Positions 1 through 52,483 of a DNA stretch of 64,000 nt are shown here, in pieces. The stretch is from a virus. Taxonomy: Duplodnaviria; Heunggongvirae; Uroviricota; Caudoviricetes. Position numbers and translations under genes: made by a program. Location of the stretch: the IMG/VR virus record IMGVR_UViG_3300017917_003366; one strand, 5' to 3'. The stretch's first letter is position 1; every line of letters begins with the position of its first letter. The notes under the pieces were generated by a model. That model was not told where the DNA came from and searched no databases. It saw nothing but the letters and a program-made list of their open reading frames with translations.

Positions 1-414
1 CTTATCTTCGGGTTTATTTTCAGCAATTAAGTTGCCGGTAATAAAAATTAAATTATTTGAATCTAATCCATATTTGTTACCAATCAAATTCATATTAAGT
101 GAAATATGTTCCCCATAAAAATATTCGGTCATGGCATTTATTACCACCTTACATTTTCCTCGTTTCGCATGTTCCACCAATTTATTTGATAATATAATCG
201 ACGAGGCAAAATTTGGGTCTGGTTTTCCATCTATAAAATAAATAAAATTTACGTCTTCATTAATTAGTTCATCAACCGTTCCTTTTCTAAAATTAATTTG
301 GTTTTTATTTATTCCTGAAATTAAGAAACCATATGATAAGCTCATTTCTTTACCATACACATTTGATATCGGCCACCCGTCATCACTTATTTTATCAAAA
401 CCAAAACAACACAT
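1..414 (-). CDS. Hypothetical protein, 3'-truncated by window edge (MCCFGFDKISDDGWPISNVY...)
   Basis: Own translation: ATG at 414-412 overlaps the TAA of the radical SAM gene (TAATG); 138 codons open to position 1. Not in the ORF track. Confidence 0.75.
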   Translation of the reverse strand, partial: MCCFGFDKISDDGWPISNVYGKEMSLSYGFLISGINKNQINFRKGTVDELINEDVNFIYFIDGKPDPNFASSIILSNKLVEHAKRGKCKVVINAMTEYFYGEHISLNMNLIGNKYGLDSNNLIFITGNLIAENKPEDK

Positions 415-1796
415 TAAATTTCTATGGTTTTACAAAAATTATAGAATTCTTCTAATTCGGGAAATGTTTTAATAAAGTCAGTGCCTCTTCTTTTGTCATG
501 CTCGGAAAAGAATTTATAAAAATCGTGTCGATTTCTCATTTGTTGATTTGTATCCTGTGGTGAAATCATCCAATCGTAAATTCTTTTAATTTTATCCACT
601 TCAATATCAACAAATCCCGGAAAAGTATCGGTATGGTCTCTTAACGAATCGGCCAATAAATAATGATTATAAATGTTATCAGATAAATCGTATGGTAAAA
701 CCTGAACAGATTGGTGTAGGGGGTATCTTAAATAAGATGAATCTAAAAATACTGCGGGGTTCCAATATCTATCATTAGAATTAAACTGTTTTTTTAACGA
801 ATGTACACCTCTAATTAACTTATCATAATTAAAAACAGATAGGGCGTTATATGTTGACATGAATACGATAACCACTCTATTAGTTTTTGATAATATTTTA
901 GTTACGTTGTCCCAAAAACGATTGAACTCCATACCGTTACGGATATATTCCGCTTGGTTTCCCCAAGTATCGCAAGAGGTATACAAAACAAGTTCTTTTA
1001 CTAAATTATTATCCTCAATAATTTTAATCTTATCAATCAATCTATCAATTAGGTCATCAGGAGAACCTAAATTTGAATTAATACCCAACTTTAAATCTCT
1101 ATTTGGGTTTGGTTCATTAATTATGTAGTCAAGGATTTTCCATGTATCATTCATCAAAAGTGGTTCACCACCTGTTATTCTAAATGTATGTAAATCCCTA
1201 TACAGTTCTGGCCACCATTTCCAAAACGCCTCCACATATGGATTATGTTCCGTATGTGGTATCGGCATTTGCCCAATTGAATTCAAATACTCGAGATTAT
1301 TAAAATTCTCAAACGTTGGGTATCCTCCAAATTTTTTTGATTCCTGTACCCATTGAGAAGAAAATGATGGTCCACAATAAGAACACTTGAAATTACAAAT
1401 ATTGGAAAATGCAACCTCAACATATCTTGGATTAAAGTCGGCTCTCCAATCTAAATTTTTAATTTCCTCCATATGTGGATGTGACCATGGTTCGTGTGAT
1501 TTATAAACTCTATCTGAAAATTTATCAGAATTATCCTCCACATTCCAACAATACTCACATTCAGATGGTCGTTTACCGTCTAACATCTCTTTTCTACGTT
1601 CCTTTTTATATTTTGTATTATGTAGTGCTGACGGGTTTCTTATTAATTCTGAAACCGGAATTTTATGTGTTGATGGGTGGTGACAAGAATGTGTCTGTCC
1701 CATTTGTAAGTGTATGGTTACTTGTGTCCATTTTGCCAAGCAAAACCCACAACCCGTTGAATTTAATTCGTCTTTTACGTTTTGATGTGATATCAT
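414..1796 (-). CDS. Radical SAM protein with N-terminal Cys/His (twitch/SPASM-like) region
   Basis: CxxxCxxC motif (NICNFKCSYC), GGEP motif (ITGGEPLL), extra CGFCLAKW, HSCHH and CEYCW motifs. Confidence 0.9.
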   Translation of the reverse strand: MISHQNVKDELNSTGCGFCLAKWTQVTIHLQMGQTHSCHHPSTHKIPVSELIRNPSALHNTKYKKERRKEMLDGKRPSECEYCWNVEDNSDKFSDRVYKSHEPWSHPHMEEIKNLDWRADFNPRYVEVAFSNICNFKCSYCGPSFSSQWVQESKKFGGYPTFENFNNLEYLNSIGQMPIPHTEHNPYVEAFWKWWPELYRDLHTFRITGGEPLLMNDTWKILDYIINEPNPNRDLKLGINSNLGSPDDLIDRLIDKIKIIEDNNLVKELVLYTSCDTWGNQAEYIRNGMEFNRFWDNVTKILSKTNRVVIVFMSTYNALSVFNYDKLIRGVHSLKKQFNSNDRYWNPAVFLDSSYLRYPLHQSVQVLPYDLSDNIYNHYLLADSLRDHTDTFPGFVDIEVDKIKRIYDWMISPQDTNQQMRNRHDFYKFFSEHDKRRGTDFIKTFPELEEFYNFCKTIEI

Positions 1797-3178
1797 GTTG
1801 TTGTGTTTATCATTAATACATTATTTAACCCAAATGGATTTTCTTGGGTACCTTCTATTTTAAGTTTTTCCATTATTTGTTTAAAACCATCTGACTTATA
1901 ATCAATTTTTCTTTGTTGCATCTCTGTAACAAATCTTTTTTCATTTTTTGCGGTAGTTGCACCTTTAGCCCAAGTACCATTCACAAACCCTTCGTCGGTA
2001 TGAGATAAACAGTAAAACGAACCTTCTCTTCTGTATGGTAAAATGTTACCAATCACATTGATGTCTTCAGTTCCGTATTCTATGTTTTCATGGTCGATTT
2101 CAAAGTATTCATTACTATAATCGTAATCCATCACCAAATCATTCTCTTCGTTATAGATTTTTATTTCCGCAACTTTACCTTTAAAATAGGTATTTTGATT
2201 TGGACAAAATCCAACAGTGAATGGTCTGACAGAATCAAAACTTTTCATATCTCCAATATAAATTGATTCATTCTCTTTGATACCGTTGATATTCGTTTCT
2301 AACTCATCATTCACATAGAAATATAATTTACCTGTTGGTTTATCGTATTTGTATGTCACCCTTGTCCACAACCCTTCTTGTCTTTTTGCCCAATTATATT
2401 TCACATCACCGGTTTTATCTGTACCCAAGAATGTAACCGCTCTTGAATTGTTGAATGATAAACCCCATGTGTTTCCACCTTCTTTTCTGAGTATCGGATA
2501 TTCTATGAATTTTCTTGCGGGGTCACCAACTAACCATATGGGTACCTTTTCATTTTGTTGTTCGGGATAGAATAATACACTAACCGTGTGAGTATTATTC
2601 AATGCAGTACTTATTTCTCGATTACAACCCAACCTTAATGATGAGTTCTCTCCATTGAATTCGATGTATCCTCGGTCTTTATATTGTTCACTTATTTTAT
2701 ATTCAACATAGTTTTCAAAGTAACATCTCCAAAACAAATCGTCATCTTCTTGACCCCAATCCCAATATTCATTTGAGTAACCGTTGGTTCTTTCAACATG
2801 TTCTTTAGTGAATAAAACAACTCCACCGAAATACTGGTCATAACCCAAACCATACTGGTATTTTGACAACTTAGTGGCAATGTGTATTGGATTCTCCTCA
2901 GGATATGAATAATCGGGTAATGTATCCATATGTTTTGTGTAAGCCAACATATCTACGTCATGCCAAGCGATATAATCACAACCATCTTCAAATGCGTATT
3001 TCGCAGCAATATTCTTCATCATACCTCTATTAAAAAGATTGTCATCAACTTGATGTCCCACATAAAATTTATGGTCAATTCCTCTTTCATTTAGGTATGA
3101 AGAAAGATGTGGAACCAATCTATCGAGATGCTCCTTTCTATTTCTATATGGTATACAAATTCCTAATTTATGTTTCAT
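1793..3178 (-). CDS. GT7 (beta-1,4-galactosyltransferase-like) glycosyltransferase with inserted LamG/ConA-like domain
   Basis: IPYRNR, FNRG..KN, HDVD (DxD), YFGGV, NGYSNEYWDWGQEDDDL; LamG-like segment about aa 165-365; GT7 tail (LSH..., KSDG) resumes after it. Confidence 0.88.
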   Translation of the reverse strand: MKHKLGICIPYRNRKEHLDRLVPHLSSYLNERGIDHKFYVGHQVDDNLFNRGMMKNIAAKYAFEDGCDYIAWHDVDMLAYTKHMDTLPDYSYPEENPIHIATKLSKYQYGLGYDQYFGGVVLFTKEHVERTNGYSNEYWDWGQEDDDLFWRCYFENYVEYKISEQYKDRGYIEFNGENSSLRLGCNREISTALNNTHTVSVLFYPEQQNEKVPIWLVGDPARKFIEYPILRKEGGNTWGLSFNNSRAVTFLGTDKTGDVKYNWAKRQEGLWTRVTYKYDKPTGKLYFYVNDELETNINGIKENESIYIGDMKSFDSVRPFTVGFCPNQNTYFKGKVAEIKIYNEENDLVMDYDYSNEYFEIDHENIEYGTEDINVIGNILPYRREGSFYCLSHTDEGFVNGTWAKGATTAKNEKRFVTEMQQRKIDYKSDGFKQIMEKLKIEGTQENPFGLNNVLMINTTT

Positions 3179-4584
3179 ATTCCTACAACTACATGTATTT
3201 GTTGTTTAACTTTTGAAAGAGAATGTTCAACAAAATCACAATTAGATAAACCATCTTCTTTTGTGTTTCTGTATCCTTTCTGTACCTCATTGTAAAACTT
3301 TAATTGATTATATCTTGTCATATCACTCTTCCATCCGGTCTTAACGAATCCATTCTCTTCATGGGTTAATAATTCAAATGTTGATTTTCTTCTAAATGGA
3401 ACATCGATTGTTTTTGATTCAGAATACGATTCACCAACAATTTCACAGTTATAAATTTCACCATCATTATCTCCACACAAGTCAATTAATTTATAACCCC
3501 TAATGAATTTAGAATCGTAGTAAAGTATCAACGCGTGGTCAGATGAGTATCTTCCAAAACTTTGTGTTAAACCAAAGTATTTGTTATTCGATATCTCCCT
3601 GATTTCCGAATATGGTAATTCTTTATTGAATACTGCAAATGAACTAATCAAACCTCTGTAATAATTCTGGTCTCTTTTTCTTGTTGGGTCACCGACACCT
3701 AAATAAAAGAATTCTTCCTTCTCATATTTGTGAAGTGTTCTATAACTTTCCTGTGAAACCAAATCACCATCTTGATAGAATTTAATTAGGTTATCGTTTG
3801 GATTAATGGTAACCGCTACGTTGGTTCTGTAGTTTGTTTTGATGTTTGAATATTGGTAGATGATATTTCTACCCCCATCAAATATTTCTAATGTGTATCG
3901 GGCGTAAGAATTATATGTTACAGTGAAATCATAACCGGCAATTGAGAATACGGAATATTTGTCATCCATTTTTTCGTGGTCACAAATAAACTCATCAGGA
4001 AAGAATGAAATAAAGATGGTAAACTCCTCTCTTTGTTTGAAGAAGTTCTTACCTCGAACATATGCATCAACTCCATTGAATTTAAGTGATGCAACATTAC
4101 CTCCCTTCATTTCAATTTCTTTAACATCCAATGGAATACCATTTATCTTACATCTATGTAAAAGGTCGGTATCTTCATATCCCCATCCCCAATAATCATT
4201 TGAGTATCCATTAATGTGTTCAAACATGATTACAGGAAATATTGTAACTCCACCAAAGTATTCATCAAATACAATTCTTTTTGTTTCACCAATGAAATCG
4301 GTTGCCATTTGAACCGGTACATCTGAATATGAATAATCAACATCAACCGGTATCATATCCACATCATGAAATGCAACATAATCACATTTATTTTTCTTAG
4401 CATATAGAAACCCTACATTCAACAGTTTACCTCTGTTAAATGCTTTACCATCATCTTGTTCAACCACAATTAATTCAAAATCAATTCCTTTTTCATTTAG
4501 ATAGGGAATGATTTTTTTCTTGAATGTTTGTAGGTGTTCAAATCGGTCACGATAGGGAACTATAACACCAAGTTTCTTATCCAT
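3175..4584 (-). CDS. GT7 glycosyltransferase paralogue with inserted LamG/ConA-like domain
   Basis: VPYRDR, FNRGKLLNVG, FHDVD, YFGGV, NGYSNDYWGWGYEDTDL; then LamG (FNGVDAYV, VAVTI, FYQDG, YYRGLISSFAVFNKEL); then GT7 tail (LTH..., EDGLSN). Confidence 0.9.
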   Translation of the reverse strand: MDKKLGVIVPYRDRFEHLQTFKKKIIPYLNEKGIDFELIVVEQDDGKAFNRGKLLNVGFLYAKKNKCDYVAFHDVDMIPVDVDYSYSDVPVQMATDFIGETKRIVFDEYFGGVTIFPVIMFEHINGYSNDYWGWGYEDTDLLHRCKINGIPLDVKEIEMKGGNVASLKFNGVDAYVRGKNFFKQREEFTIFISFFPDEFICDHEKMDDKYSVFSIAGYDFTVTYNSYARYTLEIFDGGRNIIYQYSNIKTNYRTNVAVTINPNDNLIKFYQDGDLVSQESYRTLHKYEKEEFFYLGVGDPTRKRDQNYYRGLISSFAVFNKELPYSEIREISNNKYFGLTQSFGRYSSDHALILYYDSKFIRGYKLIDLCGDNDGEIYNCEIVGESYSESKTIDVPFRRKSTFELLTHEENGFVKTGWKSDMTRYNQLKFYNEVQKGYRNTKEDGLSNCDFVEHSLSKVKQQIHVVVGI

Positions 4585-4795
4585 TTATGGTTGGGTCCTT
4601 CGGTTTAATTGAATTATGCCATTCAGATAGATACCATTGGATTCTATCTCCCCACTCTTTCTTATCTACTTCTTCGAACCACACGGTTAATGCATCCAAA
4701 GAGTTGGCAATCTTCTCAAGTGCCTTAACTTTTCTTTGTTCAAGAAGTAAGAATTCGTTTTGTTCTTCCGAATTGGTTGTTTTTCTTCCACTCAT
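4577..4795 (-). CDS. Hypothetical protein (72 aa)
   Basis: ORF overlaps both neighbours in operon fashion; plausible helical composition. Confidence 0.6.
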   Translation of the reverse strand: MSGRKTTNSEEQNEFLLLEQRKVKALEKIANSLDALTVWFEEVDKKEWGDRIQWYLSEWHNSIKPKDPTING

Positions 4796-5649
4796 ATTGT
4801 TATGATTTTTTTTATTAATTTATTCCATTGTTTATATTTTTTATATTCAGGTTTGGTTAAACCTTTTTCAAACATAAACTCCGGGTCATCCAAATTGATA
4901 TGTCCTCTCATTTTGGATACTTCTTTGTACATTTTTCTATACTCTTCAGAAAATGCATACTCCTGATTAATCGACGCAACATTTCTCATACGTTGAGTTG
5001 ATGTTGAATCCCATTTAAAGTGATGTACTTGGACAGTATGTGATGGTACTGGTGCAATTAATGGATGATTCCACCCTTGCCATCTCCAAGTAGTATGGTT
5101 AAGTATTTTTGCGTAGTGTTGACCGTTGGTAATTTCAACATATCCCTTAACAACACAAATTTTGTTTGGACATGCGTCACTCATCGGGTATCTGAAGAAT
5201 CCTGCGTTCGGAAATTGTTTCCAAAGTGAATCTTTTTGATTTATTTCGGGGAATGTACCATCGGGACCGATTCTATCAATGAAACCACCTCTTACGATGT
5301 CCCAATTATTGGTTTCACAATCGATTATTAATTGTCTTAAATCATCTTCAGGGTAAAGATGTAACTCATCAATGTCGGCAATCACCCACCAATCATTTGG
5401 GTGTTCTCTTTTAACGTAATTGTATAGTTGTGTAACCTTCTCCCAATCAAAAACCCTATCATATACGGTTTTGACAATCTTTACATTGGGATACTCGTCA
5501 ATAATCTGATTAACTTCGTTAACCAGCTCTCGGTATAAATCAGATTCGTATACCACGAGGTTAATTTCGTCCACATATCTCTGATAGTGTTCAATATAAT
5601 GTTTAAGGAGATTAGTTCCATGACCTATTACACTTAATGCTCGTATCAT
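4792..5649 (-). CDS. Glycosyltransferase family 2-like (GT-A fold) protein
   Basis: LLKHYIEHY near N-terminus, WWVIADIDE (DxD) motif, NKIC...GQH and HHFKW segments typical of GT2/GT92-like proteins. Confidence 0.72.
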   Translation of the reverse strand: MIRALSVIGHGTNLLKHYIEHYQRYVDEINLVVYESDLYRELVNEVNQIIDEYPNVKIVKTVYDRVFDWEKVTQLYNYVKREHPNDWWVIADIDELHLYPEDDLRQLIIDCETNNWDIVRGGFIDRIGPDGTFPEINQKDSLWKQFPNAGFFRYPMSDACPNKICVVKGYVEITNGQHYAKILNHTTWRWQGWNHPLIAPVPSHTVQVHHFKWDSTSTQRMRNVASINQEYAFSEEYRKMYKEVSKMRGHINLDDPEFMFEKGLTKPEYKKYKQWNKLIKKIITI

Positions 5650-6374
5650 TTCTTTCTATTAATAATCGTAATTCCAGTTGATGATGGCTTTGTAGGAATT
5701 ATACGAAAATTGAATAGATTTATCAAGTTCCAATCAGGATTTTCTTGGATTTCTTTTATGAGTTTGGGTGGACCGTCGAACTTATGGTAATCTTTCTTGG
5801 CATCTTCCGAAACAATTAGATTATTTTCATAATTTTCATCGGTATCGTGAATTACGATGATACCATTCTCGGATAATAATTTGGAATAGAGTTCGAAGTC
5901 CTTTTTCACTCCTTCATAAGTATGGTCACCATCAATAAAGAGAAAATCAATCTTTATATCTTGTAAAGTAAAAAAGTTATAGTACGCGTTTTCTGAAGTA
6001 TTTTTAATAAATCGTGGGTAAAACGTTTTTCTATAGAAAGAATCTTCATTATCTAAATCAGTTTGTCCACCAATTCCATTACACGCATCAACCACATAGG
6101 TTGCACCGATGTCACCCCAATTATAATCGGGATTACCTTCAAAAATACCTTGTTTGTGAAGGTCAATACGTGCTTGGGTAATGATACGAGGAATGAACCC
6201 ACCACCAGAACCGATACATACACAGTTCTTTGCCCTTAATTGTTGGATAAGAGCATAAACAACAATCCCGTCACCTATGTGGAAGTCGGTTGCACCGTGT
6301 GTCCAACGATAGGGAACGGGATTATCTCCGTTGTTTGTTATAAACTGATTAATAAAGTCACTATTGGTTATCAC
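5646..6374 (-). CDS. Class I SAM-dependent methyltransferase (Methyltransf_24-like)
   Basis: CIGSGGG glycine loop, IDFLFIDGDHTYEGVKKDF, GIIVIHD; GTG start. Confidence 0.85.
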   Translation of the reverse strand: MITNSDFINQFITNNGDNPVPYRWTHGATDFHIGDGIVVYALIQQLRAKNCVCIGSGGGFIPRIITQARIDLHKQGIFEGNPDYNWGDIGATYVVDACNGIGGQTDLDNEDSFYRKTFYPRFIKNTSENAYYNFFTLQDIKIDFLFIDGDHTYEGVKKDFELYSKLLSENGIIVIHDTDENYENNLIVSEDAKKDYHKFDGPPKLIKEIQENPDWNLINLFNFRIIPTKPSSTGITIINRKK

Positions 6375-6396
6375 AATAGTGATAATTTACGAAAAA

Positions 6397-6759
6397 TTAT
6401 TCAGGTTGTGAAGGGGTCGGGAACATTTCAGGGTCCATAGGGACTGTCCACTCTTCAGTTGCCAATAGTGATAAAATTTCTTCGTGATTGTATTCGGGAA
6501 ATACACCGTTATAGATTGATGGTCTTCCGTAAATACCTGCGGCAATTGTTGATGTCATTTCCTCCATTGTTTCGGGATTAATGAACGTATTGATTATATC
6601 ATTTTCAACGATATTAATTTCGTACTTAATAAATGTTTTAGTTCCGTCAACGGAATAACGAAGTGTCTCAGGTGAGTTCTCGTGAACCTGATTAAAATCT
6701 ACGTTTTCTACTTCTGTAGATGGAATTACCAACCATCTTCTGTTAGGGAAATTGCTCAT
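6397..6759 (-). CDS. Hypothetical protein, probably virion-associated
   Basis: 120-aa ORF ending the adhesin cluster; preceded by the TATTTATA motif. Confidence 0.65.
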   Translation of the reverse strand: MSNFPNRRWLVIPSTEVENVDFNQVHENSPETLRYSVDGTKTFIKYEINIVENDIINTFINPETMEEMTSTIAAGIYGRPSIYNGVFPEYNHEEILSLLATEEWTVPMDPEMFPTPSQPE

Positions 6760-6766
6760 ATTGTTT

Positions 6767-8848
6767 TTATTTTATAAATATTCCATAATGATAATAAGCG
6801 GTCATAGCCGGAGAACCTCCATAGGTTAATGATGGATTATAACCCGCACCTTGGTATAGTGCGGTGTTGTAGTTACTGTTATCGGGAAAACGATTATCGG
6901 TAAATTGTCTTCTGTCCGCGGTATAATAACCTGTACCATCTACATATGGTGAAACATGTGCATTCCATTCATTTTGTGTGTTACTTAATGAATTTCCATC
7001 AATTGCGTAGTGAGTACCCAAACCTCTCGTAACGTCCCAGTTATCAGGTTCTAATGTTTGTTCACTACCCAATATTCTACATCCATTATTAACCAATAAA
7101 TGGTTAACTCGTAAGTGACCTAATGTTCTTGCGATTGAACAATAATCCAATCCTCTATTATATGTCGTTTTACCCAAACCACCTTGAGCATAATACGTAC
7201 TCGATATTTGTCTTCCTCCACTACCCTGACCAGGTGTATTCATTATTGTTTGAAACGTTTGTCCTGTAAAACTTGAAAGTAGTTGCCATGCGGCCCAACT
7301 CTCATTACCAAACTCGGTACCATTATTATGAACCTTTATCATCCATTTTGTACATGGATAATATCTAAAAATATCTCGATTTCTGTATTGTCCCGTTGTT
7401 GTATATGGTAATGAAGGGTTTCCGATTTCTGAACCTGCGTTTATCCAATTATCATAATCATTCCACGTTAAATTGGTATCGCCAAAATAATCACTCTTTA
7501 TATTCATAACCAACATCCAACCCTCACCATTTTTAAATTCACAATAGGTTTGTTTTGTTGATGTTCCATTATTAATCCAATAAACACCGTTTGTTTTAAT
7601 ACCCAAATCTGCCAAGTATTGTGCTGAGGGTGCCGCCAATGCTGACGTACTACCATCTTTAATTGCCGGTAATGAAAATCTACCTCTATAATGTTCGTAA
7701 TTATTTAAAATTTCTTGTTCGGTTAATGCTCTATTGTAAACTTTAGTAACATCTACTTGACCATTTAATTTATATGTACCATATCCACCATGGTTACTTT
7801 GGCCAATCCATGTCCCAAATAATGGGTATGCACCCATTTTTGTACCTGTATATACCCCTGCAGGTTGTCCATTGATATATAATTTTATTCTACCATCTGT
7901 CGCACTTGTAGTTTCATATATCGCAGCGACATGATTATAGTTTGTTTTTGATTGACACGCAACAGTTGCGTTTCCATTAACGGTAAATTGATATCCGGGT
8001 GTATCGGGGGGACCACTCCTTGTTGCTAAACTGACAATATCGGATGAATAGTTATACCACAAATTAAAACGATAATTTTCAAATAATGGACCGTCATTAC
8101 CCGAAGCACCACTGGCAATTTTAAAAACTTGCTCAACAGTTACCGCAGAAACACTTGCAGGAAAATAATCACTAACATTACCTAAATCAATTCTATCATC
8201 TGTCCCATCTAAAATAGGTTTACCATTCACATCAAAAGATGCTGCGGATAAATCAATGGTGGTTAATCCCATAACATCCAATAATCCTTGAGTTGCACTT
8301 CTTGTTCCGTTAACAAATGGTGTAGCAACCGAACCCGCCTCGACTTGTGGCATCGTTACTTCCCATGAAGAATAACTACCACCATAGGTTCCTCCATAAG
8401 AAATTAAATAAAAATTCACACTTGTTGTGGAAAATGTTCTTGTTGCGGACACTCTAACCCATTCCCCTATTGATTTACTATGCCCCTGAGCGGTGTCTCC
8501 TATACCCCCACCACTTGTATAAATAACTCCCCCATTATTGTCTGAAGCTCCCCCCAAATACCTAATATATGCAGATAATGTATATGTTCCGGTACTTGGT
8601 AATGATATACCCTTTACGATACCGTTCCACGAACCTCTGTTATACATTTTATAACCGGTGGTTCCAAATTCAGTAATAAATGTCCCATCATTACCATTAT
8701 CATAAGTTGACCAACCAGACATAGTTGATGCATCTGATACTAAATTAGTTGTTGGTTTACCTTTATATGACGCATCGGTATCACCAACGTCATATCCGAA
8801 GGTTAAACCAGATGTTGATATTTTTCCGTATCCTGTTCTTGTTGCCAT
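6767..8848 (-). CDS. LamG-domain adhesin/tail-fibre protein with inserted jelly-roll domain and C-terminal fibrinogen/intelectin-like domain
   Basis: GKPTTN...TRSATQGLLD cassette; LDGTDDRI, YNHVAAIY, YING, KVYNRALT LamG motifs; C-terminal TNGVYWI..TYCEF..GEGWMLV. Confidence 0.8.
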   Translation of the reverse strand: MATRTGYGKISTSGLTFGYDVGDTDASYKGKPTTNLVSDASTMSGWSTYDNGNDGTFITEFGTTGYKMYNRGSWNGIVKGISLPSTGTYTLSAYIRYLGGASDNNGGVIYTSGGGIGDTAQGHSKSIGEWVRVSATRTFSTTSVNFYLISYGGTYGGSYSSWEVTMPQVEAGSVATPFVNGTRSATQGLLDVMGLTTIDLSAASFDVNGKPILDGTDDRIDLGNVSDYFPASVSAVTVEQVFKIASGASGNDGPLFENYRFNLWYNYSSDIVSLATRSGPPDTPGYQFTVNGNATVACQSKTNYNHVAAIYETTSATDGRIKLYINGQPAGVYTGTKMGAYPLFGTWIGQSNHGGYGTYKLNGQVDVTKVYNRALTEQEILNNYEHYRGRFSLPAIKDGSTSALAAPSAQYLADLGIKTNGVYWINNGTSTKQTYCEFKNGEGWMLVMNIKSDYFGDTNLTWNDYDNWINAGSEIGNPSLPYTTTGQYRNRDIFRYYPCTKWMIKVHNNGTEFGNESWAAWQLLSSFTGQTFQTIMNTPGQGSGGRQISSTYYAQGGLGKTTYNRGLDYCSIARTLGHLRVNHLLVNNGCRILGSEQTLEPDNWDVTRGLGTHYAIDGNSLSNTQNEWNAHVSPYVDGTGYYTADRRQFTDNRFPDNSNYNTALYQGAGYNPSLTYGGSPAMTAYYHYGIFIK
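6773..6780 (-). promoter_or_regulatory. TATTTATA putative late promoter
   Basis: 13 nt before ATG 6759; encoded in GIFIK* of the upstream gene. Confidence 0.55.
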
Positions 8849-8849
8849 A

Positions 8850-10586
8850 TTATAATATATCTACTTCTACGTGACTTAGGTATTCTGCCTCGTCCGTTTG
8901 TCCTTGGTCCGCACCCATCACGTGTCTAACTGTTAATGTGTTACCTGTATGGGGATGCCAACCACTATCAATGGTTAGATAACCATCTTGACCATACGAA
9001 CCTCCACCCCATGGTCTATATGTGTACGATTGATGTCCACTCCAAGTTGCCGTTACACCAACTTTTTGAATACTGATGTTCGGTACTAAATTATATTGTT
9101 TTGTAAATCGTAAAAGTTCAACTTCATTTCCTGTCTGATTTGTGATGAATAACTGATTTACTTCATTATCAAGGGAATCGACTAAATGCCAAAACACCTT
9201 ATATCTTATTTGTGTGTGGGAGTGTGATATTGGTAATGTTAATGTGTATGTTACGGGTCCTGAAGTAAAACCATGTGCGGTAACGTTACCCAATCCACCG
9301 AACTGAGCCATGTTATATGTGGTGCTATTATTCCAATTACCAATAAAATAACTTAACGATGCATTACTACCCTCATAGTAATATGGTATAGAATATTTTC
9401 TTCTATATTTCTGAAAATTAATTTGTATTTCACTATCGGCATGTATCCTATCATATATTTTGAATACATCCATTGTCATTGCGGTATAATATGAACCACC
9501 TTCTCGACCTAACTGTATTTCACCACTGTTACTTAATGTACCGACGGTTCCCAATGTTATTGAACCACCAAGGGTACCGTCAACATAAGCTTTCCAATTA
9601 AGACCACTTTTGGTCCAAACAATATGGTGATATCTACCGTCAACAACTAATCTACCGGTGTCACAACTATAATAAGTTCCATCACCATTTCTTCCACCAA
9701 TGGCTAAGTTTCCATTTGCACCGAGTATTAATTCCCAACCTGTTGAATGGTACTTCATTCCAAAAACTTTTAATGAACCTAAATTTGATGTTTCAAATTT
9801 TACAACGGTTTCAATGGTTATGTCATCAATAATTTGAATCGCACCGTAACTAGCAACAGTCATAGAATCGTTAGTACCATCAAAAATAGGTAAACCGGTC
9901 GAATTAAATGTTGCATTGGTCACATCTATGGTTCCATTCCCACTCACATCAATTAATGATTGTGTAACACTTCTTGTTCCCAAAACGAGTGGTGTCATGT
10001 GGTCCTTTTGTTCTAATTGATATCCAAAATATGCCAATTTCTCACCAACATAATCACCGGTATAACTACTCATATAAACGCCTGTTTCATTTGACTGCGT
10101 TGTAAATGTTATACTTAATCTAATCCACTTACCTCTTGGCCAATTCAAATAATTTGTATCACCATTATATGCAAAATATCCAAGTGAATCGTTATTAACT
10201 GCCGTTCTTAAATATGGTGGTACTTGTAATGTACTTCCTTGGAACCAAAAATAAATGGACATGGTATATTGAGTACTTGGTGAGATACCAATAATTGATG
10301 AACCTAATTGTTGGTTAGAACCTGCACCTGTGACTGTTGAACTAAAGATTTTTAATCCTGATGTATTAACATTTGGGATGATTGGTTTAGGTATTGAAGT
10401 ATCATCATCATTAAATGTTGTACTACCACCATTAACCCACCAATTCGAACCCGAATTTAATGAGTTATTTGTTGCATATGCAATATTTGTGGTCGGTTCT
10501 CCTTTAAATGAGTTAACCGTTTCGGTTGTATCAAATCCGAAAACTAATCCGTAATCATTTGTGTATGGTCCTATTGATTGTGACAT
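8850..10586 (-). CDS. LamG-domain adhesin with inserted carbohydrate-binding-like domain and extra C-terminal lectin-like domain
   Basis: GEPTTN...TRSVTQSLID cassette; FDGTNDS, YHHIVWT, YVDG, KIYDR motifs; C-terminal domain after the KYSI helix. Confidence 0.8.
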   Translation of the reverse strand: MSQSIGPYTNDYGLVFGFDTTETVNSFKGEPTTNIAYATNNSLNSGSNWWVNGGSTTFNDDDTSIPKPIIPNVNTSGLKIFSSTVTGAGSNQQLGSSIIGISPSTQYTMSIYFWFQGSTLQVPPYLRTAVNNDSLGYFAYNGDTNYLNWPRGKWIRLSITFTTQSNETGVYMSSYTGDYVGEKLAYFGYQLEQKDHMTPLVLGTRSVTQSLIDVSGNGTIDVTNATFNSTGLPIFDGTNDSMTVASYGAIQIIDDITIETVVKFETSNLGSLKVFGMKYHSTGWELILGANGNLAIGGRNGDGTYYSCDTGRLVVDGRYHHIVWTKSGLNWKAYVDGTLGGSITLGTVGTLSNSGEIQLGREGGSYYTAMTMDVFKIYDRIHADSEIQINFQKYRRKYSIPYYYEGSNASLSYFIGNWNNSTTYNMAQFGGLGNVTAHGFTSGPVTYTLTLPISHSHTQIRYKVFWHLVDSLDNEVNQLFITNQTGNEVELLRFTKQYNLVPNISIQKVGVTATWSGHQSYTYRPWGGGSYGQDGYLTIDSGWHPHTGNTLTVRHVMGADQGQTDEAEYLSHVEVDIL

Positions 10587-14876: not shown

Positions 14877-15575
14877 TTATTTTATATAAACGGCACCATA
14901 CTGATGAATGTCCCCACTTGAACCATTCCAATATGGTCCATTATCATATCCAAAATAGTTACCACTCCAACACGATTCATACCACCATGGGTTATTACCA
15001 TAATATGATGAGCAACTACCGCTGTTCGTATCTTGGTCATTATCGTATGTACTTAAATTATATCCACCCGCCGCGTGGTTACTATAAAATCCCGGAGCCC
15101 CCGTGCTTGTTTCATCACTTAATGCTCCGACACCTGAAAACGCAAATGTTGGAGTAAAATTATCAAATTTCCATCTATATCTTTTTGCGTGAGCACCACT
15201 TAAAGGAGTCCCATTTGTTGGTGCAACAAATTGGGTAACTGTTACATAACTTGAGTTATTTCTTTTACCTAACACCTCCCAATATTTTGTTCCAATCCAA
15301 ACATTATAATTTGATAATCCTGAAAGATTGTATAAAGGTTCATTCGTGTTACTTGATGTTCTATAGTTACAGGTGTTAATTGCATCATAATATGTTAAAT
15401 TTCTCATACCAACAGAACTTTGTCTGTTAGCAATTACACATACCCATCCACCACCATCATATTCTTGGTCCACATATACCACAACATTGTCGTTTCCAAC
15501 TTTAATGTTGTAAAATCCTGAAGGTCCTGTTATTTGGGAAACACTTGTGTATCTCCCTCCAAAATGCATCGCCAT
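14877..15575 (-). CDS. Fibrinogen C-terminal (FReD) domain protein
   Basis: VYVDQEYDGGGWVCV and LSTYDNDQDTNSGSCSSYYGNNPWWYESCWSGN match the FReD consensus (D..GGGW; FST.D.DND...C.....WWY..C). Confidence 0.88.
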   Translation of the reverse strand: MAMHFGGRYTSVSQITGPSGFYNIKVGNDNVVVYVDQEYDGGGWVCVIANRQSSVGMRNLTYYDAINTCNYRTSSNTNEPLYNLSGLSNYNVWIGTKYWEVLGKRNNSSYVTVTQFVAPTNGTPLSGAHAKRYRWKFDNFTPTFAFSGVGALSDETSTGAPGFYSNHAAGGYNLSTYDNDQDTNSGSCSSYYGNNPWWYESCWSGNYFGYDNGPYWNGSSGDIHQYGAVYIK

Positions 15576-17078: not shown

Positions 17079-18395
17079 TTATAAATTATATTTCCCTCTT
17101 ATTGCATGATAATTTGATTTAACCTCTTCAGACGTTAAAACTTTATTATATACTCTAACAATATCAATCTCACCATTAAAATATTCTGAAGGTGCACTAA
17201 TCTTGTAACCAACCGATGATTTGTACGAACCGACGTTTAAAGCCGCGGCAGTTCCTGTGGAGTTACCTTGTGAATATAAAGAACCGTTCACATAAATCTT
17301 AATTGGGTTTGATGGTGCGTTTATATCTACTGTTATTATCCAATGATTCCACGTACCGGTGGTGTATGGTACCACACTATGGTAATCATTTCCTTGTCCG
17401 TTAAATCCACCATAACCATTCGATAATAAAATCATACAAGCTCTTGTGCTATTGATAACTGACGATGTATTTTGTTCCCACACAACTTGAGTTGCTGTTG
17501 CATTTGTTTTAAAAACTGCTTCAATTGTATACTGTTGTTGTCCCGCAGATAAAACAGGATTCATTAAAGCGTAATCGTTAGAACCATCAAATATCATTTT
17601 ACCCGTTGAGTTAAATGAAACATTTGATAAATCAATTGATGTGATTGTTTTTGTTCTATCAAATAATCCCTGTGTTGAGCTTCTTGTAAGTGTTGGACTG
17701 AATTTTGTTGGGTGGTCCTTTAATTCTAATTGTACATCGGCAATTCTTATTAATCCAATATCAAATACATAAGTGTACATGTATACCGCACTATAAGAAT
17801 CGTTTAAGTTTCTACTTGCTGATACGGTAAATGTTTGAGATAATCTTTCCCATGTATGGGTTTTGGTATTTACAGGAACTGTTGATAATCCATCCCAAAA
17901 ATTAAAGTTTCCACTACCATCTCTACTATATACCCCAACATGTGCTCTTTTTACTAAATTATTTGTCCATTGTAACCAAGATATTGTATACTGAGAACCA
18001 ACCGTCATTCCATAAGTTGACCAAGCGTTCATGCCGGTTCCAAATGATTTTGCCTGCCAAGTATTAACCACATCGTATGATTGGACAACGGGTTTTTTCA
18101 AATCATTATCATAAATCCAATAAGCGTGTCGTGCATTCGTCCAATCCCCAACTCCCGAATTTATGTAATTTGAAATATCGTTATTGTCAGTGTTATAAAC
18201 TCTGATTGCTTGGGGGTGATTAACCGCGATTGTTCCTTGACCACTTTCGGGCATGTATGAAGTATATGTACCATCAATTCTTGGATTTTGGTGGTAGATA
18301 TAATTTGTTGTTGGTTCACCAGCAAATGATTTTCCATCACTTAAATCGTAGTGAAAAACTAATCCATCTCTTACTATGTTTGGTCCACTACTCAT
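17079..18395 (-). CDS. LamG-domain adhesin with inserted carbohydrate-binding-like domain
   Basis: RDGLVFHYD, GEPTTN...TRSSTQGLFD, FDGSNDY, WNHWIIT, YVNG, RVYNKVL, GKYNL. Confidence 0.82.
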   Translation of the reverse strand: MSSGPNIVRDGLVFHYDLSDGKSFAGEPTTNYIYHQNPRIDGTYTSYMPESGQGTIAVNHPQAIRVYNTDNNDISNYINSGVGDWTNARHAYWIYDNDLKKPVVQSYDVVNTWQAKSFGTGMNAWSTYGMTVGSQYTISWLQWTNNLVKRAHVGVYSRDGSGNFNFWDGLSTVPVNTKTHTWERLSQTFTVSASRNLNDSYSAVYMYTYVFDIGLIRIADVQLELKDHPTKFSPTLTRSSTQGLFDRTKTITSIDLSNVSFNSTGKMIFDGSNDYALMNPVLSAGQQQYTIEAVFKTNATATQVVWEQNTSSVINSTRACMILLSNGYGGFNGQGNDYHSVVPYTTGTWNHWIITVDINAPSNPIKIYVNGSLYSQGNSTGTAAALNVGSYKSSVGYKISAPSEYFNGEIDIVRVYNKVLTSEEVKSNYHAIRGKYNL

Positions 18396-19555
18396 TATAA
18401 TCCAAATCTTGATTTTGATGCATTATAGTTTTGATAAACTTGTTCTGCGGTTAATGCTCTATTGTAAATTTTGGCAACAGATATGTAACCATTAAAATTG
18501 TGAGTATCATCTACGATAGTACCACCATATGTTCCAATGTAATATGTTGCACTTGGTATTGTTCCCGTTAACGATGCGTTCCATACTTCAACACCATTTA
18601 TATATGCCCTACTAACACTTCCATTATATGTTCCAACCAAATGTGTCCATTTGTTTCTTGGTATGCTCCCATTAATATTATAAGGACGAGCACCCGTGGA
18701 TGTTTGAACTGCCCAATGTGAACCAAATGTGGTTCCATCATAAGAATCGAAGATACCTAAGTACATACTATTGGTACTCGAAATAACCCCACCTCTAATT
18801 GTGCCAGGTGTAACCAAATCTTGTGGATTAATCCACGCTTCACATGTAATATAATTTGTTGGTTGGGTAAATGAAGTTAGTTGTATGTAATCATTTGTTC
18901 CATCGAAATTCAACATTGCATTTGAATCAAATGATGCATTTGCCACGGTCATAACACTTCTCTTGGATAAATCAATTAAACCTTGGGTATTTGAACGAGT
19001 ACCGGGAGTAAATGGTGTTACGTGTGATTTAGCTTCACATTGAACATCTTTTATTTCAAATGAGTGTGTGTATGTTGTATAATCATCACCATCTTGTACA
19101 AACCAAATAAATCTATTTGTATTTGCCGGTGTGGTAAGAGTATATTTTGCTGTTTGCCAACCATCAATATCGGTTAAACCAATTTGTGCGGTTGTTGGAA
19201 AATATGATGTGATGTATGTCCCATCATTATATGGTTGAATTTGAAATCTTAATGTTGGGGGGCCACTTATTTTTTTAAATTTTACTGAAAAGGTATATGT
19301 TGTGTTTGCAGAAATACCATAAAAAGAAATATAATGTCTTGTATTTGAATTCACATCAACAATTCTACAATGATAATCACTTAAAATTGTTCTTGTTCCA
19401 ATACTACCTTGTCCTGAACCATCAACATTCCAATAACTCCAACGGGCATCAACAAGATTTGTTGTTGGTTCCCCAACAAGTGATTTCTCATTACCTGTAT
19501 CGTAATGAAAAATTAAATCTTGTGTTGTCGTTTTCGGTCCTCTGTGATGTGACAT
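18395..19555 (-). CDS. LamG-domain adhesin with inserted CBM-like domain
   Basis: GEPTTN...TRSNTQGLID, FDGTNDYI, WTHLVGTYNG, YING, KIYNRALT, KSRFGL. Confidence 0.85.
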   Translation of the reverse strand: MSHHRGPKTTTQDLIFHYDTGNEKSLVGEPTTNLVDARWSYWNVDGSGQGSIGTRTILSDYHCRIVDVNSNTRHYISFYGISANTTYTFSVKFKKISGPPTLRFQIQPYNDGTYITSYFPTTAQIGLTDIDGWQTAKYTLTTPANTNRFIWFVQDGDDYTTYTHSFEIKDVQCEAKSHVTPFTPGTRSNTQGLIDLSKRSVMTVANASFDSNAMLNFDGTNDYIQLTSFTQPTNYITCEAWINPQDLVTPGTIRGGVISSTNSMYLGIFDSYDGTTFGSHWAVQTSTGARPYNINGSIPRNKWTHLVGTYNGSVSRAYINGVEVWNASLTGTIPSATYYIGTYGGTIVDDTHNFNGYISVAKIYNRALTAEQVYQNYNASKSRFGL

Positions 19556-19564: not shown

Positions 19565-20704
19565 TTATCCTAGATATGCGACTGAGAAATTATCATTTGC
19601 ATCAAATGAAATTACACCCACGGCAACAACCATTTTAAGGGTATCGCCGGCGTTTAATTTAGATATCGTACTACCACCTGTATGGTTCATGGTTGTATTT
19701 GCACCAAATTCAATCATCACTTGTGGAGTTCCAGTTGTTCCTCCCGTATTGTTTTTATATACTATAAGTTGAGATATTGTGCCCAAACTATTTGAATTCG
19801 TTCTTACCACAACATTTACTTGGTATAACCCTGTTATTGGTGCAGTAAACGTACCGGTTGTATTGTTCCAACCACTACCTTGTTGGTAATCAACATTTAA
19901 ATAACTACCTGATAGGGTTGTAACTGCGGACATTGGTCCACCCGCACCTGTTACTCTAAATGCAGGTCTGTTTGTCATTACCATCGTACCGCTTACAGTT
20001 AAAGAACCTGTAACCGCAACATCACTCGTAACGTTAAGAGAACCTGTGATAGTTTGATTACCATTAAATGAGTTTGAACCTGTGGTCGCGAATCCCATAT
20101 CTGTTATAGTATTCCAACTTGCACCAACCCCATCTGTTTGTAAAATTCTTCCATCGTATGAAGAACTTATTGCGGGTAAACCTCCACCAACTGTTGCGGT
20201 TGCGAACCCCGATTGTGCCATAGAAAATGTAATAACGGCAGTATTTTCACTAAACATCTCAATTGATGATGGAATTACAACGAATCCATTACTATCATAA
20301 ACTTGAATTACCGGATAAGTTTCACCCAAATTATGGTTAAAGTACCAAGTTGTAGAAGGAGTTGTTACTTCCAATAATTGTGTTGAACCGGGTGTCGATT
20401 GAATTGTAAATGCCAATCCAGCATATGAAGATGTTACAGCATATGATGATGAAATTACTCCCGTAATTCCCGCACCTCCACCAACGAAATTAGATGCGGT
20501 AACCGCACCAATTAAATTGATTGAACCCGTGTTAACGGTGTTGGTACTAATTAGTTCTTCAATTGATGGTCCGCCCGAACCAGATTTGGCAAGGAAAACC
20601 TTACCATCAGTTGTGTTAATTGCTAATTCTCCGAGCTGGAGATTCGAGTTTGTGGGTTTCTGACCCCCAACCGCACTCCTACGCAGTTTGACTATTTGAG
20701 CCAT
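19565..20704 (-). CDS. Tail fibre protein with C-terminal C1q-like domain
   Basis: N-terminal KLRRS..G.KP...L.LGELAINTTDG tail-fibre anchor; W.FNHNLG..YP.IQVYD module; C-terminal PAFRV, GTFTAPITGLYQV, KLNAGD, FSVAYL (C1q fold). Confidence 0.8.
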   Translation of the reverse strand: MAQIVKLRRSAVGGQKPTNSNLQLGELAINTTDGKVFLAKSGSGGPSIEELISTNTVNTGSINLIGAVTASNFVGGGAGITGVISSSYAVTSSYAGLAFTIQSTPGSTQLLEVTTPSTTWYFNHNLGETYPVIQVYDSNGFVVIPSSIEMFSENTAVITFSMAQSGFATATVGGGLPAISSSYDGRILQTDGVGASWNTITDMGFATTGSNSFNGNQTITGSLNVTSDVAVTGSLTVSGTMVMTNRPAFRVTGAGGPMSAVTTLSGSYLNVDYQQGSGWNNTTGTFTAPITGLYQVNVVVRTNSNSLGTISQLIVYKNNTGGTTGTPQVMIEFGANTTMNHTGGSTISKLNAGDTLKMVVAVGVISFDANDNFSVAYLG

Positions 20705-46515: not shown

Positions 46516-48747
46516 TTAACAACCATCATTTATTGTATATTCGGTACCAATAATTCCTGACGATACATCATAAATTTTTCCATTTGAAATTATCACAAAA
46601 AATCCATCAAATGGTAATGTTCTTTCTGCATCTGTATAGATAACAACACCATTCGCCGTAATATCGGTTACTGACAAATCAGTATATAAATTTAATGAAG
46701 CCGGACTAACACATTGAGTATTTCCTCCAAAACAGTAATTGTTACATACTGTCATATCCCAAACTTTACTATCACATGTTGTTAATAATGTAAATTCGGT
46801 GATGTAACCATTGGCATCTGTTTTCACATAATATGTTGGTGCCCCACTAAGAATTATTCCCGTAGAGTATAAACCTATCATATTAGGTATTGGATTGTAC
46901 GGTGACATAAAACCAAATATCTGTGTGCCGACCCCAATCGGGTTTGTGTGATATCTGAAACTAAATCCATTAAGTGCACCATCTGGTGAAGCATTAAGGA
47001 TTTCACAAAGAACCCCCTCTGCCGCCGAAGACGTTGGAGCTCCGTCTGAGAAATTAGTGAATGTTGCGCCATCGTTTAAACTATACGATGTTTGTAAAGT
47101 TGCAGTCAATGATGGAATCGTTACTTGAGAAGCGGTTGGTGTACTAGTTGACGTAGGGGTCGGTGTTGATGTCTGAGTGGTTTGTGGTGTACAACCTGTA
47201 TTAATTAAATCTACAGTATAACCCGTCGATGGACATCCCGCATATGGTATTGAACACGAACATAATTCGATTACCGTTCCATTAAAAAATGGTAAATCAG
47301 ATAAACCAAAATAATCTGCTTGTTGATTCATTACTGTGTTAGTATCACAATCGGTCCATGTTAAATATTCTCCACAATTTGAATTAAACGTTACACGATA
47401 TGTGTTACAATCACATAACGACACAGATGCAGTTGGTGTACTCGTTGATGTTGGTGTTGCGGTTGATGTCGGAGTTGGTGTTAATGTTGTTGATGGCACA
47501 TAACCACAACACTCATCAAGATTTACTCTAAACACTTGTTCACAACATCCGATACATACAATTTTCACATAAATTTCCATCAATGTTGGTGTAATTCCTG
47601 TGATGTTTACAGTTCCACCTGTAACTGTTGTGAATGATGTTGCACCTGTTATAACCGTTGAGGTGGTTCCCGTATAAACTGAACAGTTCGTATAATCAGA
47701 ACCTGAATTAAAACTTATTAAAACACCTTTTGGTGTAACAGTATCATTTATACAAACCGAACCACTTGTACTTGTTAGTGTTTGAGTAGGTGTATTTGTG
47801 GATGTTGAGGTTGGAGTACTTGTTAAAGTTTGAGTTGGAGTGCTCGTTGGTGTTTCTGTAGGGGTACTTGTTGGGGTTTGGGTTTGTCCCACACTTGCGG
47901 TTAAAGTTGGTGTAGCAGTTGCCGTTTCTGTAGGGGTATTTGTTGGAGTGCTAGTTGGTGTACTCGTTAATGTCTGAGTGGGTGTTTGAGTTGCGGTCTG
48001 TGTTGGGGTAAGTTCAGAATCACAATTTTGATTATCCGCACAACCACCGTTAGCATATACAAAAATATCCGCATTAGATGGGCTAAATGTTATTGTTGAA
48101 TTTGTGGAACAAACACATTGATAAACGGTCCCCATTGCAGGTAAAAAACCAGAAGTTTGAAAGTTGTTGTAACAATCGTAATAACTATATGTTACATCAT
48201 CGCCCCTTTCACTCACAATTTGTTTACATAAACAATCTTCACATACCAATGGAATTCCGTATTCACATATGTATGTGGTTCCTGTTGTGGTTGTTAATCC
48301 TGTTGTCGGGGTAACGTTTGTTATTACATTTACCGCAACTGCCGTTGCACTACCTATAAGAACATTATTCGCGGTTTCTACACTATATGTTCCACCACTA
48401 ATTGTTAAAGTATATGGGTATGTCCCTCCCTCTTGATTATCTAAATAACCCGTTATTGTGATATCTTGAGTAACAATTGTATCAATTGATAATTTTATAC
48501 CAAAAAAGTTGTTTTCACCTGTTTGAGGATAAGGAGATAAAATTTGTTCAGTTAACGTAACACAATCACAATTACCCACATTATTAACCGTAACACCGTC
48601 ACCGCTTGGGGTAGTTGTTGCACAAAAATATTGGGTTTCAAAACCCCCCATGGATACCGTTTGGGAATTACCTTCACAATCGGTAAATGAGGTGATACAA
48701 TTACCACCACTAAGTGCACAGTAAACTGAATATCTATTACACGCCAT
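46516..48747 (-). CDS. Virion surface protein with Cys-rich modules and Thr/Pro tracts
   Basis: Three TxT tracts and repeated C..Y...DC.G...C modules; no signal peptide. Confidence 0.75.
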   Translation of the reverse strand: MACNRYSVYCALSGGNCITSFTDCEGNSQTVSMGGFETQYFCATTTPSGDGVTVNNVGNCDCVTLTEQILSPYPQTGENNFFGIKLSIDTIVTQDITITGYLDNQEGGTYPYTLTISGGTYSVETANNVLIGSATAVAVNVITNVTPTTGLTTTTGTTYICEYGIPLVCEDCLCKQIVSERGDDVTYSYYDCYNNFQTSGFLPAMGTVYQCVCSTNSTITFSPSNADIFVYANGGCADNQNCDSELTPTQTATQTPTQTLTSTPTSTPTNTPTETATATPTLTASVGQTQTPTSTPTETPTSTPTQTLTSTPTSTSTNTPTQTLTSTSGSVCINDTVTPKGVLISFNSGSDYTNCSVYTGTTSTVITGATSFTTVTGGTVNITGITPTLMEIYVKIVCIGCCEQVFRVNLDECCGYVPSTTLTPTPTSTATPTSTSTPTASVSLCDCNTYRVTFNSNCGEYLTWTDCDTNTVMNQQADYFGLSDLPFFNGTVIELCSCSIPYAGCPSTGYTVDLINTGCTPQTTQTSTPTPTSTSTPTASQVTIPSLTATLQTSYSLNDGATFTNFSDGAPTSSAAEGVLCEILNASPDGALNGFSFRYHTNPIGVGTQIFGFMSPYNPIPNMIGLYSTGIILSGAPTYYVKTDANGYITEFTLLTTCDSKVWDMTVCNNYCFGGNTQCVSPASLNLYTDLSVTDITANGVVIYTDAERTLPFDGFFVIISNGKIYDVSSGIIGTEYTINDGC

Positions 48748-48764
48748 TTATACTAATATATCCA

Positions 48765-48771
48765 ATAAATA
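48765..48771 (-). promoter_or_regulatory. TATTTAT putative late promoter
   Basis: Intergenic, before ATG 48747. Confidence 0.58.
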
Positions 48772-48794
48772 CCGTAATGTAAATTTTATCTCAA

Positions 48795-50576: not shown

Positions 50577-50625
50577 TTATCTTAAATATAAAAAATCTTA
50601 TTTATTATGGACAGTTTCATTTTAA

Positions 50626-52461: not shown

Positions 52462-52468
52462 GTTATTT

Positions 52469-52476
52469 TATAAATA
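52469..52476 (-). promoter_or_regulatory. TATTTATA putative late promoter
   Basis: Intergenic, before ATG 52461. Confidence 0.58.
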
Positions 52477-52483
52477 TTTTTAA

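Follow-up and report, generated by a model that had tools for sequence, protein, structure and literature searches.

Two GT7-type glycosyltransferases of a tailed phage carry a LamG domain nested within the catalytic fold

Glycosyltransferase family GT7 is best known from animal Golgi enzymes. In one of these, the beta-1,4-galactosyltransferase beta4GalT1, the C-terminal His and the loop that follows it form a lid, which closes on the donor, creates the acceptor site and docks alpha-lactalbumin. In the resulting lactose synthase (1nf5, 1yro), a protein module that docks next to the lid loop gives a GT7 enzyme a new acceptor specificity. The lectin domain of the polypeptide N-acetylgalactosaminyltransferases (ppGalNAc-transferases) is described as steering substrate choice (PMC4432651, PMC10901373), and GnT-IVa (MGAT4A), a GT-A enzyme, as being regulated by a lectin domain of its own (PMC9296478). 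For the capsid and tail-tube glycans of mycobacteriophages, phage-encoded transferases are described as acting on structural proteins in the cytoplasm (Freeman 2023, cited in PMC12619734). Here we analyzed a stretch of 64,000 nucleotides (the window) from the IMG/VR record IMGVR_UViG_3300017917_003366, a virus of the Caudoviricetes, in which two adjacent genes encode the GT7 proteins P0001 and P0002. The GT-A fold of these proteins is discontinuous, with a LamG domain nested between the helix of the xED base and the strand of the C-terminal His.

An earlier note on this DNA, made from the letters only, had listed GT7 motifs for both paralogues, and all of them were found (PYRNR/PYRDR, FNR, HDVD, YFGGV and WDWGQED/WGWGYED). 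The hidden Markov model search that it had proposed placed three Pfam domains above their gathering cut-offs in both proteins: Glyco_transf_7N (P0001, E 7.5e-16, 58.4 bits; P0002, E 2.5e-21, 76.1 bits; cut-off 27), Glyco_transf_7C (P0001, E 2e-18, 66.2 bits; P0002, E 1.1e-15, 57.5 bits; cut-off 23) and, after the latter, Laminin_G_3 (E 1e-07; 32.6 bits in P0001 and 32.4 bits in P0002, just over the cut-off of 27.6). The Glyco_transf_7C match was partial, covering profile positions 2-60 of 78 and ending at 59-60. When all PDB sequences were searched with phmmer, residues 3-152 aligned to beta4GalT7 and beta4GalT1 (E 1e-30 to 1e-25). DVD, YFGGV and WGxED were in register, and the alignments ended at the short strand after the xED helix.

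An exhaustive HMMER search collected 5,315 relatives, many of which are GT7-only proteins of ~215-250 residues. In these short homologues the segment ...DDDLxxRC...G.... runs straight into RRxGx(F/Y)xxLxH, which is followed by N..R, DGL and the final strands, and the alignment showed 220-261 extra residues at that junction in the long forms. The insert is 220 residues long in P0001 and 242 in P0002; the LamG-like stretch of about 200 residues previously noted is thus present in both and slightly longer than stated. A profile built from the C-terminal 78 positions alone (the C-part profile) was compared with the whole PDB. The beta4GalT1 chains were its sole matches (E 0.004), and it aligned with their last 43 residues (NPQRF...SDGLNSLTY...VDI).

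AlphaFold2 models, for which an alignment of 64 sequences served as input, were predicted with high confidence (pLDDT, the per-residue score, 93.6 for P0001 and 94.9 for P0002; pTM, the predicted template modelling score, 0.89 and 0.90). Local alignments by Foldseek did not extend beyond the first ~155 residues of the GT7 fold, so that VIA-align was needed for the discontinuous match. On bovine beta4GalT1 (1tvy_A), VIA-align superposed 214 residues of P0001 (Z 27.5, root-mean-square deviation (rmsd) 1.9 Å) and 213 of P0002 (Z 27.1, rmsd 2.2 Å), and the superposition spanned model residues 1..461 and 1..469, respectively, against chain residues 178..398. Model residues ~164-376 of P0001 and 163-395 of P0002 form a separate sandwich of the LamG/pentraxin/neurexin-LNS type (Z 15-22), which matched the PAPP-A LamG, PTX3, the neurexin LNS and 4dqa with Z 15-18 in P0001 and 17-22 in P0002. 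A LamG fold is therefore predicted in both models, and it is nested rather than terminal. The short homologues, the C-part profile and the structure prediction are three independent lines that agree on the discontinuity of the GT-A fold. Two further statements of the earlier note were borne out by these data: the GT7 C-terminal segment resumes after the insert, as indicated by the C-part profile match and the first-to-last-residue superposition, and the insertion point is the same in both paralogues with no terminal fusion, as indicated by the short-homologue alignment, the C-part profile and VIA-align. The observation itself was confirmed, and no part of it is a chance match.

The likeness to beta-1,4-galactosyltransferases 1 and 7 (CAZy GT7; 1tvy, 3lw6, 4irq) lies in the GT-A fold (Z 26-27.5, rmsd ~2 Å), in 29-33% identity over ~213 aligned residues, and in the DVD, YFGG, WGxED(D)D and C-terminal His motifs together with the DGL C-terminal segment. 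In contrast to these enzymes, the phage catalytic domain is split by a LamG domain of 220-240 residues, and the phage proteins, which are cytoplasmic, lack the first ~48 residues of the catalytic domain (the match begins at bovine residue 178), the stem and the membrane anchor. Short GT7-only proteins of bacteria, phages and giant viruses (~195-290 residues) are collinear with the N- and C-parts of the phage proteins, including RRxGx(F/Y)xxLxH and DGL, but they have no insert, and their lid loop after the His is ~8 residues shorter and without GxxxGxW. Since 220-242 residues are inserted between the xED helix and the C-terminal His strand, the GT7 catalytic domain is not contiguous, and P0001 and P0002 represent a variant GT7 architecture. 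Taujale et al. (PMC7185993) placed the hypervariable regions of the GT-A fold at beta3-alphaC, beta6-beta7 and the tail after beta8. The insertion, after the xED helix alphaF and before the C-terminal His, does not obviously coincide with any of these, although a residue-level mapping onto that core was not achieved.

Conservation was scored over 64 divergent members, down to ~27% identity (P0001 numbering). D74, D76, W141, G142, D145 and R151 were invariant, E144 and H393 were kept in 98% and Y116 in 92% of the members, and P381, R383, N412 and G431 were invariant or nearly so. The DxD motif, D74-V-D76 in both proteins, was aligned to SDVD of beta4GalT1. The small-loop Trp and the catalytic-base region (W141/E144/D145 in P0001, W134/E137/D138 in P0002) occurred in 98-100% of the members. 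In P0002, T replaces the second D of EDDD and the catalytic-base position is retained. The C-terminal His (H393 in P0001, H408 in P0002; 98% of the members) is collinear with the His of the short GT7 proteins and is the probable counterpart of beta4GalT1 His347, as judged by motif and structure range rather than by residue-level superposition. An alignment to human beta4GalT1 confirmed the motif correspondences, and in the C-part profile N356, R359 and F360 of beta4GalT1 aligned with the conserved N..RF motif of the phage proteins. The donor-pocket Tyr (Y116/Y109), which corresponds to the Tyr of QYFGGV in beta4GalT1, hints by analogy at a hexose rather than an N-acetylhexosamine donor. After the C-terminal His, a lid-loop motif, HxxxGxxxGxW, was present in the long forms only and not in the short forms. 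No hydrophobic segment or leader was found in P0001 or P0002, and each begins at strand 1 of the fold, indicating that both are soluble proteins of the cytoplasm. Judged by their residues, P0001 and P0002 look like metal-dependent inverting enzymes of the beta-1,4-galactosyltransferase type (GT7, GT-A) that are catalytically competent.

P0001 had 1,601 matches in a word-indexed search among 5.8 billion proteins. Nearly all of the best 120 were full-length (~450-480 residues), and none carried an informative name. At least 520 GT7-LamG loci were found in IMG/VR, on contigs of up to 335 kb, and the full-length ESM Atlas clusters among the matches listed were 100% viral, mostly Uroviricota. Among 185,579 prokaryote species (one genome each), there were three full-length matches, all on contigs of metagenome-assembled genomes (MAGs), two of which carried the phage operon; the 13 further matches were partial and mostly covered the GT7 N-part of shorter or differently built proteins. 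The AlphaFold DB clusters contained a single full-length look-alike, A0A2E0BNI5 (template modelling score 0.88, 34% identity). In BFVD nothing resembled the full-length proteins; the matches there were GT7 domains of giant viruses and LamG proteins on their own. Neither window positions 1-9000 (megablast) nor the two proteins (tblastn) matched any of 50,697 GenBank phage records, and therefore no cultured or deposited phage of that set carries these genes. PHROGs gave nothing useful for P0001 or P0002, NCBIfam gave no match for either, and a literature search on GT7 and on LamG glycosyltransferases in phages, and on lectin-domain insertions in GT-A enzymes, found no description of the nested-LamG architecture. 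GT7 with a nested LamG is a large, undescribed phage variant of the GT7 family that is essentially restricted to tailed phages. A viral ESM Atlas cluster of 495-residue GT7 proteins had ~226 aligned residues spread over model residues 1-461 and no Laminin_G_3 match; another domain may occupy the insertion point in this cluster.

The earlier note had also suggested that LamG was recruited from the adjacent adhesin array. The eight neighbouring open reading frames (ORFs) with Laminin_G_3 that it mentioned are present, and a profile of the insert detected their LamG domains (best E 8e-17, ORF 18395-19555). They are thus homologous Laminin_G_3 domains, and the kinship of the insert to the fibre LamGs is only generic. 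In a maximum-likelihood tree, 26 inserted LamGs and the eight neighbour LamGs were split by one branch (support 99/94), with the inserted LamGs of both paralogues and of distant relatives on the same side, and the P0001-type inserts formed one clade (100/100). Recent recruitment from the neighbouring array was ruled out by this tree. The composite architecture is common to hundreds of phages, with members down to ~27% identity, which together with the tree separation indicates that the insertion is old and predates the array of this phage. P0001 and P0002 share 28% identity over the full length. The tree and the wide distribution of both paralogues side by side point to one old insertion followed by duplication rather than a recent capture. 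Among 119 orthologues of P0001, identity to P0001 was 52% in the LamG part, 83% in the N-part and 62% in the C-part. Several near-invariant patches lie within the LamG part, with conserved stretches at P0001 residues ~211-250 and 262-272; LamG is constrained and not a hypervariable tip. On a related 108-kb contig the P0002-type gene is split into ORFs of 279 and 144 residues (L004, 8711-10004) and the P0001-type gene is intact. A frameshift or the decay of one paralogue may explain the split.

Since the LamG domain enters and leaves the fold immediately before the C-terminal His strand, which leads to the lid, we propose that it is an acceptor-selecting module in a competent GT7 pair, and that the two paralogues add different sugars in a phage glycan pathway. 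We assign this reading a probability of about 0.6. LamG, nested between the xED helix and the C-terminal His strand, would act as a built-in acceptor selector and would do in cis the job that alpha-lactalbumin or a terminal lectin domain does in other transferases. Each of the two old paralogues would add a different sugar of one glycan, probably in successive steps. Besides the two GT7-LamG enzymes, the pathway would comprise a methyltransferase, a GT2-like enzyme, a small protein and at least one twitch-domain radical-SAM enzyme; a sugar-nucleotide dehydrogenase and a carbamoyltransferase are encoded nearby.

A parallel for such a selector would be lactose synthase, where the module stands beside the lid loop as LamG probably does in the phage enzymes. 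The specifier is a separate protein in lactose synthase, whereas the phage domain is covalently nested and only presumably near the acceptor site. The ppGalNAc-transferases, with which the pair had previously been compared, likewise join a GT-A domain and a beta-rich domain of carbohydrate-binding type in one chain. They differ in family (GT27), retaining mechanism, lectin fold and Golgi-lumenal location, and their own lectin is a C-terminal appendage on a flexible linker, whereas the phage LamG is nested. As a functional analogy the comparison is reasonable; as a class assignment it failed, because the phage proteins have a GT7 catalytic domain and a nested LamG in place of GT27 and a C-terminal ricin-type CBM13 lectin. 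In GnT-IVa, too, the lectin domain is C-terminal and not inserted, and both the transferase family and the lectin fold are different.

The window appears to be part of the genome of a large, uncultured tailed phage from an aquatic habitat, with nearly all ORFs on the minus strand and tightly packed. No tRNAs were found in the window, and a gp46/SbcC-like nuclease subunit, a primase and a Dam methylase are encoded in it. The features discussed are listed in Table 1. The ATG of the P0001 gene overlaps the stop of the P0002 gene by 4 nt, and the P0001 stop overlaps the start of the radical-SAM gene in the same way. The order methyltransferase (Methyltransf_24), GT2-like, P0002-type, P0001-type and radical-SAM recurred in most of 80 viral loci, six of which had a third GT7-LamG copy. 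From one to five radical-SAM paralogues occurred per locus, and some of them were fused. In loci L023-L090 the radical-SAM gene is followed by up to four more paralogues, with fusions of 697-940 residues in some. The 72-residue ORF between the GT2-like and P0002 genes had no family match, and its product may serve the pathway as an adaptor or carrier. Related loci also encode a UDP-sugar dehydrogenase and a carbamoyltransferase in the vicinity. On a Spirochaetales MAG contig (L007, 24.8 kb) there is a divergent pair of GT7-LamG length, 33% identical, whose neighbours are a radical-SAM gene, an FkbM-methyltransferase/radical-SAM fusion, a carbamoyltransferase, a polysaccharide deacetylase and an FapA_N-like (flagellar assembly) gene. 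These partners indicate that the functional association holds at great distance, perhaps in a cell, and the contig may hold a cellular version of the module near flagellar genes.

Table 1. Coordinates of the two GT7-LamG genes, their segments and the associated features in the window
Feature	Position	Strand	Basis
P0001, GT7-LamG paralogue 1, 461 aa	1793..3178	-	ORF calling, Pfam, phmmer, AlphaFold2, VIA-align
P0002, GT7-LamG paralogue 2, 469 aa	3175..4584	-	ORF calling, Pfam, AlphaFold2, VIA-align, alignment
P0001 aa 1-156, N-terminal part of GT7 GT-A fold (Rossmann-like half, D74-V-D76, Y116-FGG, W141-G-x-E144-D145, helix 144-154)	2711..3178	-	Pfam 7N/7C, phmmer beta4GalT7 E 1e-30, Foldseek E 1e-13, conservation
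P0001 aa 157-376, inserted ConA-like/LamG beta-sandwich and its two connecting strands	2051..2710	-	Laminin_G_3; VIA-align to PAPP-A LamG, PTX3 and neurexin LNS, Z 15-18, model residues 164-376
P0001 aa 377-461, resumed GT7 fold (P381-x-R383, C-terminal His H393, N412-x-x-RF, D-G431, last two strands)	1796..2050	-	Alignments, C-part profile, VIA-align 1..461 vs beta4GalT1 178..398
P0002 aa 1-152, N-terminal part of GT7 fold (D74-V-D76, Y109-FGG, W134-G-x-E137-D138)	4129..4584	-	Pfam, conservation, alignment
P0002 aa 153-391, inserted LamG domain	3412..4128	-	Laminin_G_3; VIA-align to 4dqa (Z 22.0) and PAPP-A (Z 21.5), model residues 163-395
P0002 aa 392-469, resumed GT7 fold (P396-x-R398, C-terminal His H408, N426, G445)	3178..3411	-	Alignments, C-part profile, VIA-align
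P0003, twitch-domain radical SAM protein (NF033640, E 4e-105), conserved downstream partner	414..1796	-	Family search, locus comparison
72-aa ORF overlapping the stop of the GT2-like gene and the P0002 start	4577..4795	-	ORF calling; called gene of 64-67 aa at the same position in L001, L002 and L003 (by position)
285-aa GT2-like protein (weak Glyco_tranf_2_4 match), conserved upstream partner	4792..5649	-	Pfam, locus comparison
Methyltransf_24 methyltransferase, conserved upstream partner	5646..6374	-	Pfam, locus comparison
Fibrinogen-C-like protein (E 3e-08) and weak C1q-like protein (E 0.003), animal-type recognition folds in the LamG fibre block	14877-15575 and 19565-20704	-	Family search
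Four structural ORFs (one of 2915 aa), 98-696 residues each in (T-x) runs of four or more	46516-61231	-	Pattern search

Directly upstream of the GT7-LamG genes, and on their strand, are genes for fibre-like LamG, fibrinogen-like and C1q-like proteins. This upstream block, with its eight LamG proteins, the fibrinogen-C-like and C1q-like proteins and an Mtd_N-bearing protein, looks like a fibre/adhesin block. The likeliest target of the pathway would be the virion or fibre proteins of the phage, made in the cytoplasm, for which we see slightly less than an even chance; otherwise, it would be a lipid-linked or host surface glycan. Virion glycosylation in mycobacteriophages differs in that other transferase families act and no nested lectin-fold domain is known to have been reported, and in the present lineage virion glycosylation is hypothetical. 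Glycosylation of modified bases in the phage DNA is highly improbable. Phage glycosyltransferases that hypermodify DNA are described (cited in PMC12619734), but a gene for base hydroxymethylation was not seen in the operon, the partner enzymes tailor sugars, the genes adjoin fibre genes, and the LamG sandwich is not among the known DNA-binding modules.

Several points weigh against LamG as an acceptor selector in a virion pathway. Chain topology is all that places LamG relative to the active site. The LamG residues invariant across both paralogues are of the fold type only (F174, G176, G323, G334), and no shared binding site is evident. Such a pattern speaks for a structural or docking domain, which might tether the enzyme to pathway enzymes or to assembling particles or stabilize the lid and leave the acceptor choice to the GT7 core, and the high pTM of the models suggests a rigid two-domain body. 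We regard this role as quite unlikely, since LamG contains conserved patches of surface type that are specific to orthologues and the insertion immediately precedes the strand and lid from which beta4GalT1 builds its acceptor site.

The virion target, for its part, is deduced solely from the gene neighbourhood. The enzymes might instead serve to remodel a glycan of the host envelope (lipopolysaccharide, O-antigen or capsule) in the course of infection, for instance as a block against superinfection, in which case the acceptors would be lipid-linked or polysaccharide and LamG would bind the growing polysaccharide. The sugar clusters of cyanophage-type jumbo phages have been read as systems for capsular or O-antigen modification (PMC7824862), the wider cluster of the relatives includes the UDP-sugar dehydrogenase and the carbamoyltransferase, and GT7-only homologues occur in bacterial MAGs. 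It is nevertheless an unlikely explanation. Neither a membrane anchor nor an amphipathic segment is present in the enzymes, the conserved core of five genes showed none for a flippase, a polymerase or an initiating phosphoglycosyl transferase, and the module is embedded in a block of fibre and structural genes on the same strand.

The remaining point concerns the repetitive acceptors to which the earlier note had linked the enzymes. According to this explanation, the pair would perform a lectin-guided, dense O-glycosylation of the phage's own mucin-like (Thr-x)n tracts in the manner of ppGalNAc-transferases, with LamG binding the sugars already added. Four structural ORFs in the window contain such tracts, and they were also found in three related jumbo-phage records in which the module is present (CheckV completeness 100% for two and 93% for one), whereas the reversed control pattern gave 0 matches. 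Before lysis the structural proteins of a phage are in the cytoplasm, where these enzymes would be as well. However, three relatives with 100%-complete genomes, identified via the gp46-like protein (45-64% identity), lack a GT7-LamG gene and yet have 5, 57 and 126 tract matches, so that the repeats do not depend on GT7-LamG and the main support for this explanation is lost. A more distant complete genome had neither the GT7-LamG gene nor tracts. Moreover, known GT7 enzymes extend an existing sugar (N-acetylglucosamine, xylose) rather than start on Ser/Thr, and the insert is not of the ricin-type lectin fold. A strict link between GT7-LamG and the tracts was ruled out by the three complete genomes, the proposed connection to repetitive acceptors is weakened, and we consider the mucin-like explanation to have a small chance of being correct.

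The preferred reading remains a pair of competent GT7 enzymes with LamG as the acceptor selector. More tentatively, and with odds clearly below even, the LamG domain and the lid loop may serve as a covalent specifier, and the tandem enzymes may build, together with the radical-SAM and methyltransferase proteins, a novel methylated or carbamoylated glycan on the fibres or the particle of a very abundant lineage of aquatic jumbo phages. If true, these phages would encode a system of protein glycosylation that recognizes its substrates by a logic of its own.

A large clade of tailed phages keeps the full GT7 catalytic machinery with a whole lectin-fold domain beside the element that forms the acceptor site. 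If the insert sets the acceptor choice, it would be a compact natural case in which a GT-A enzyme gained specificity by domain insertion, as opposed to loop growth or terminal fusion, and a possible template for transferase engineering. In abundant jumbo phages of freshwater and marine habitats, the GT7-LamG enzymes are markers of a conserved glycan module of five genes that includes a radical-SAM family, and this module provides a concrete set of proteins for asking whether, and on what, these phages build glycans.

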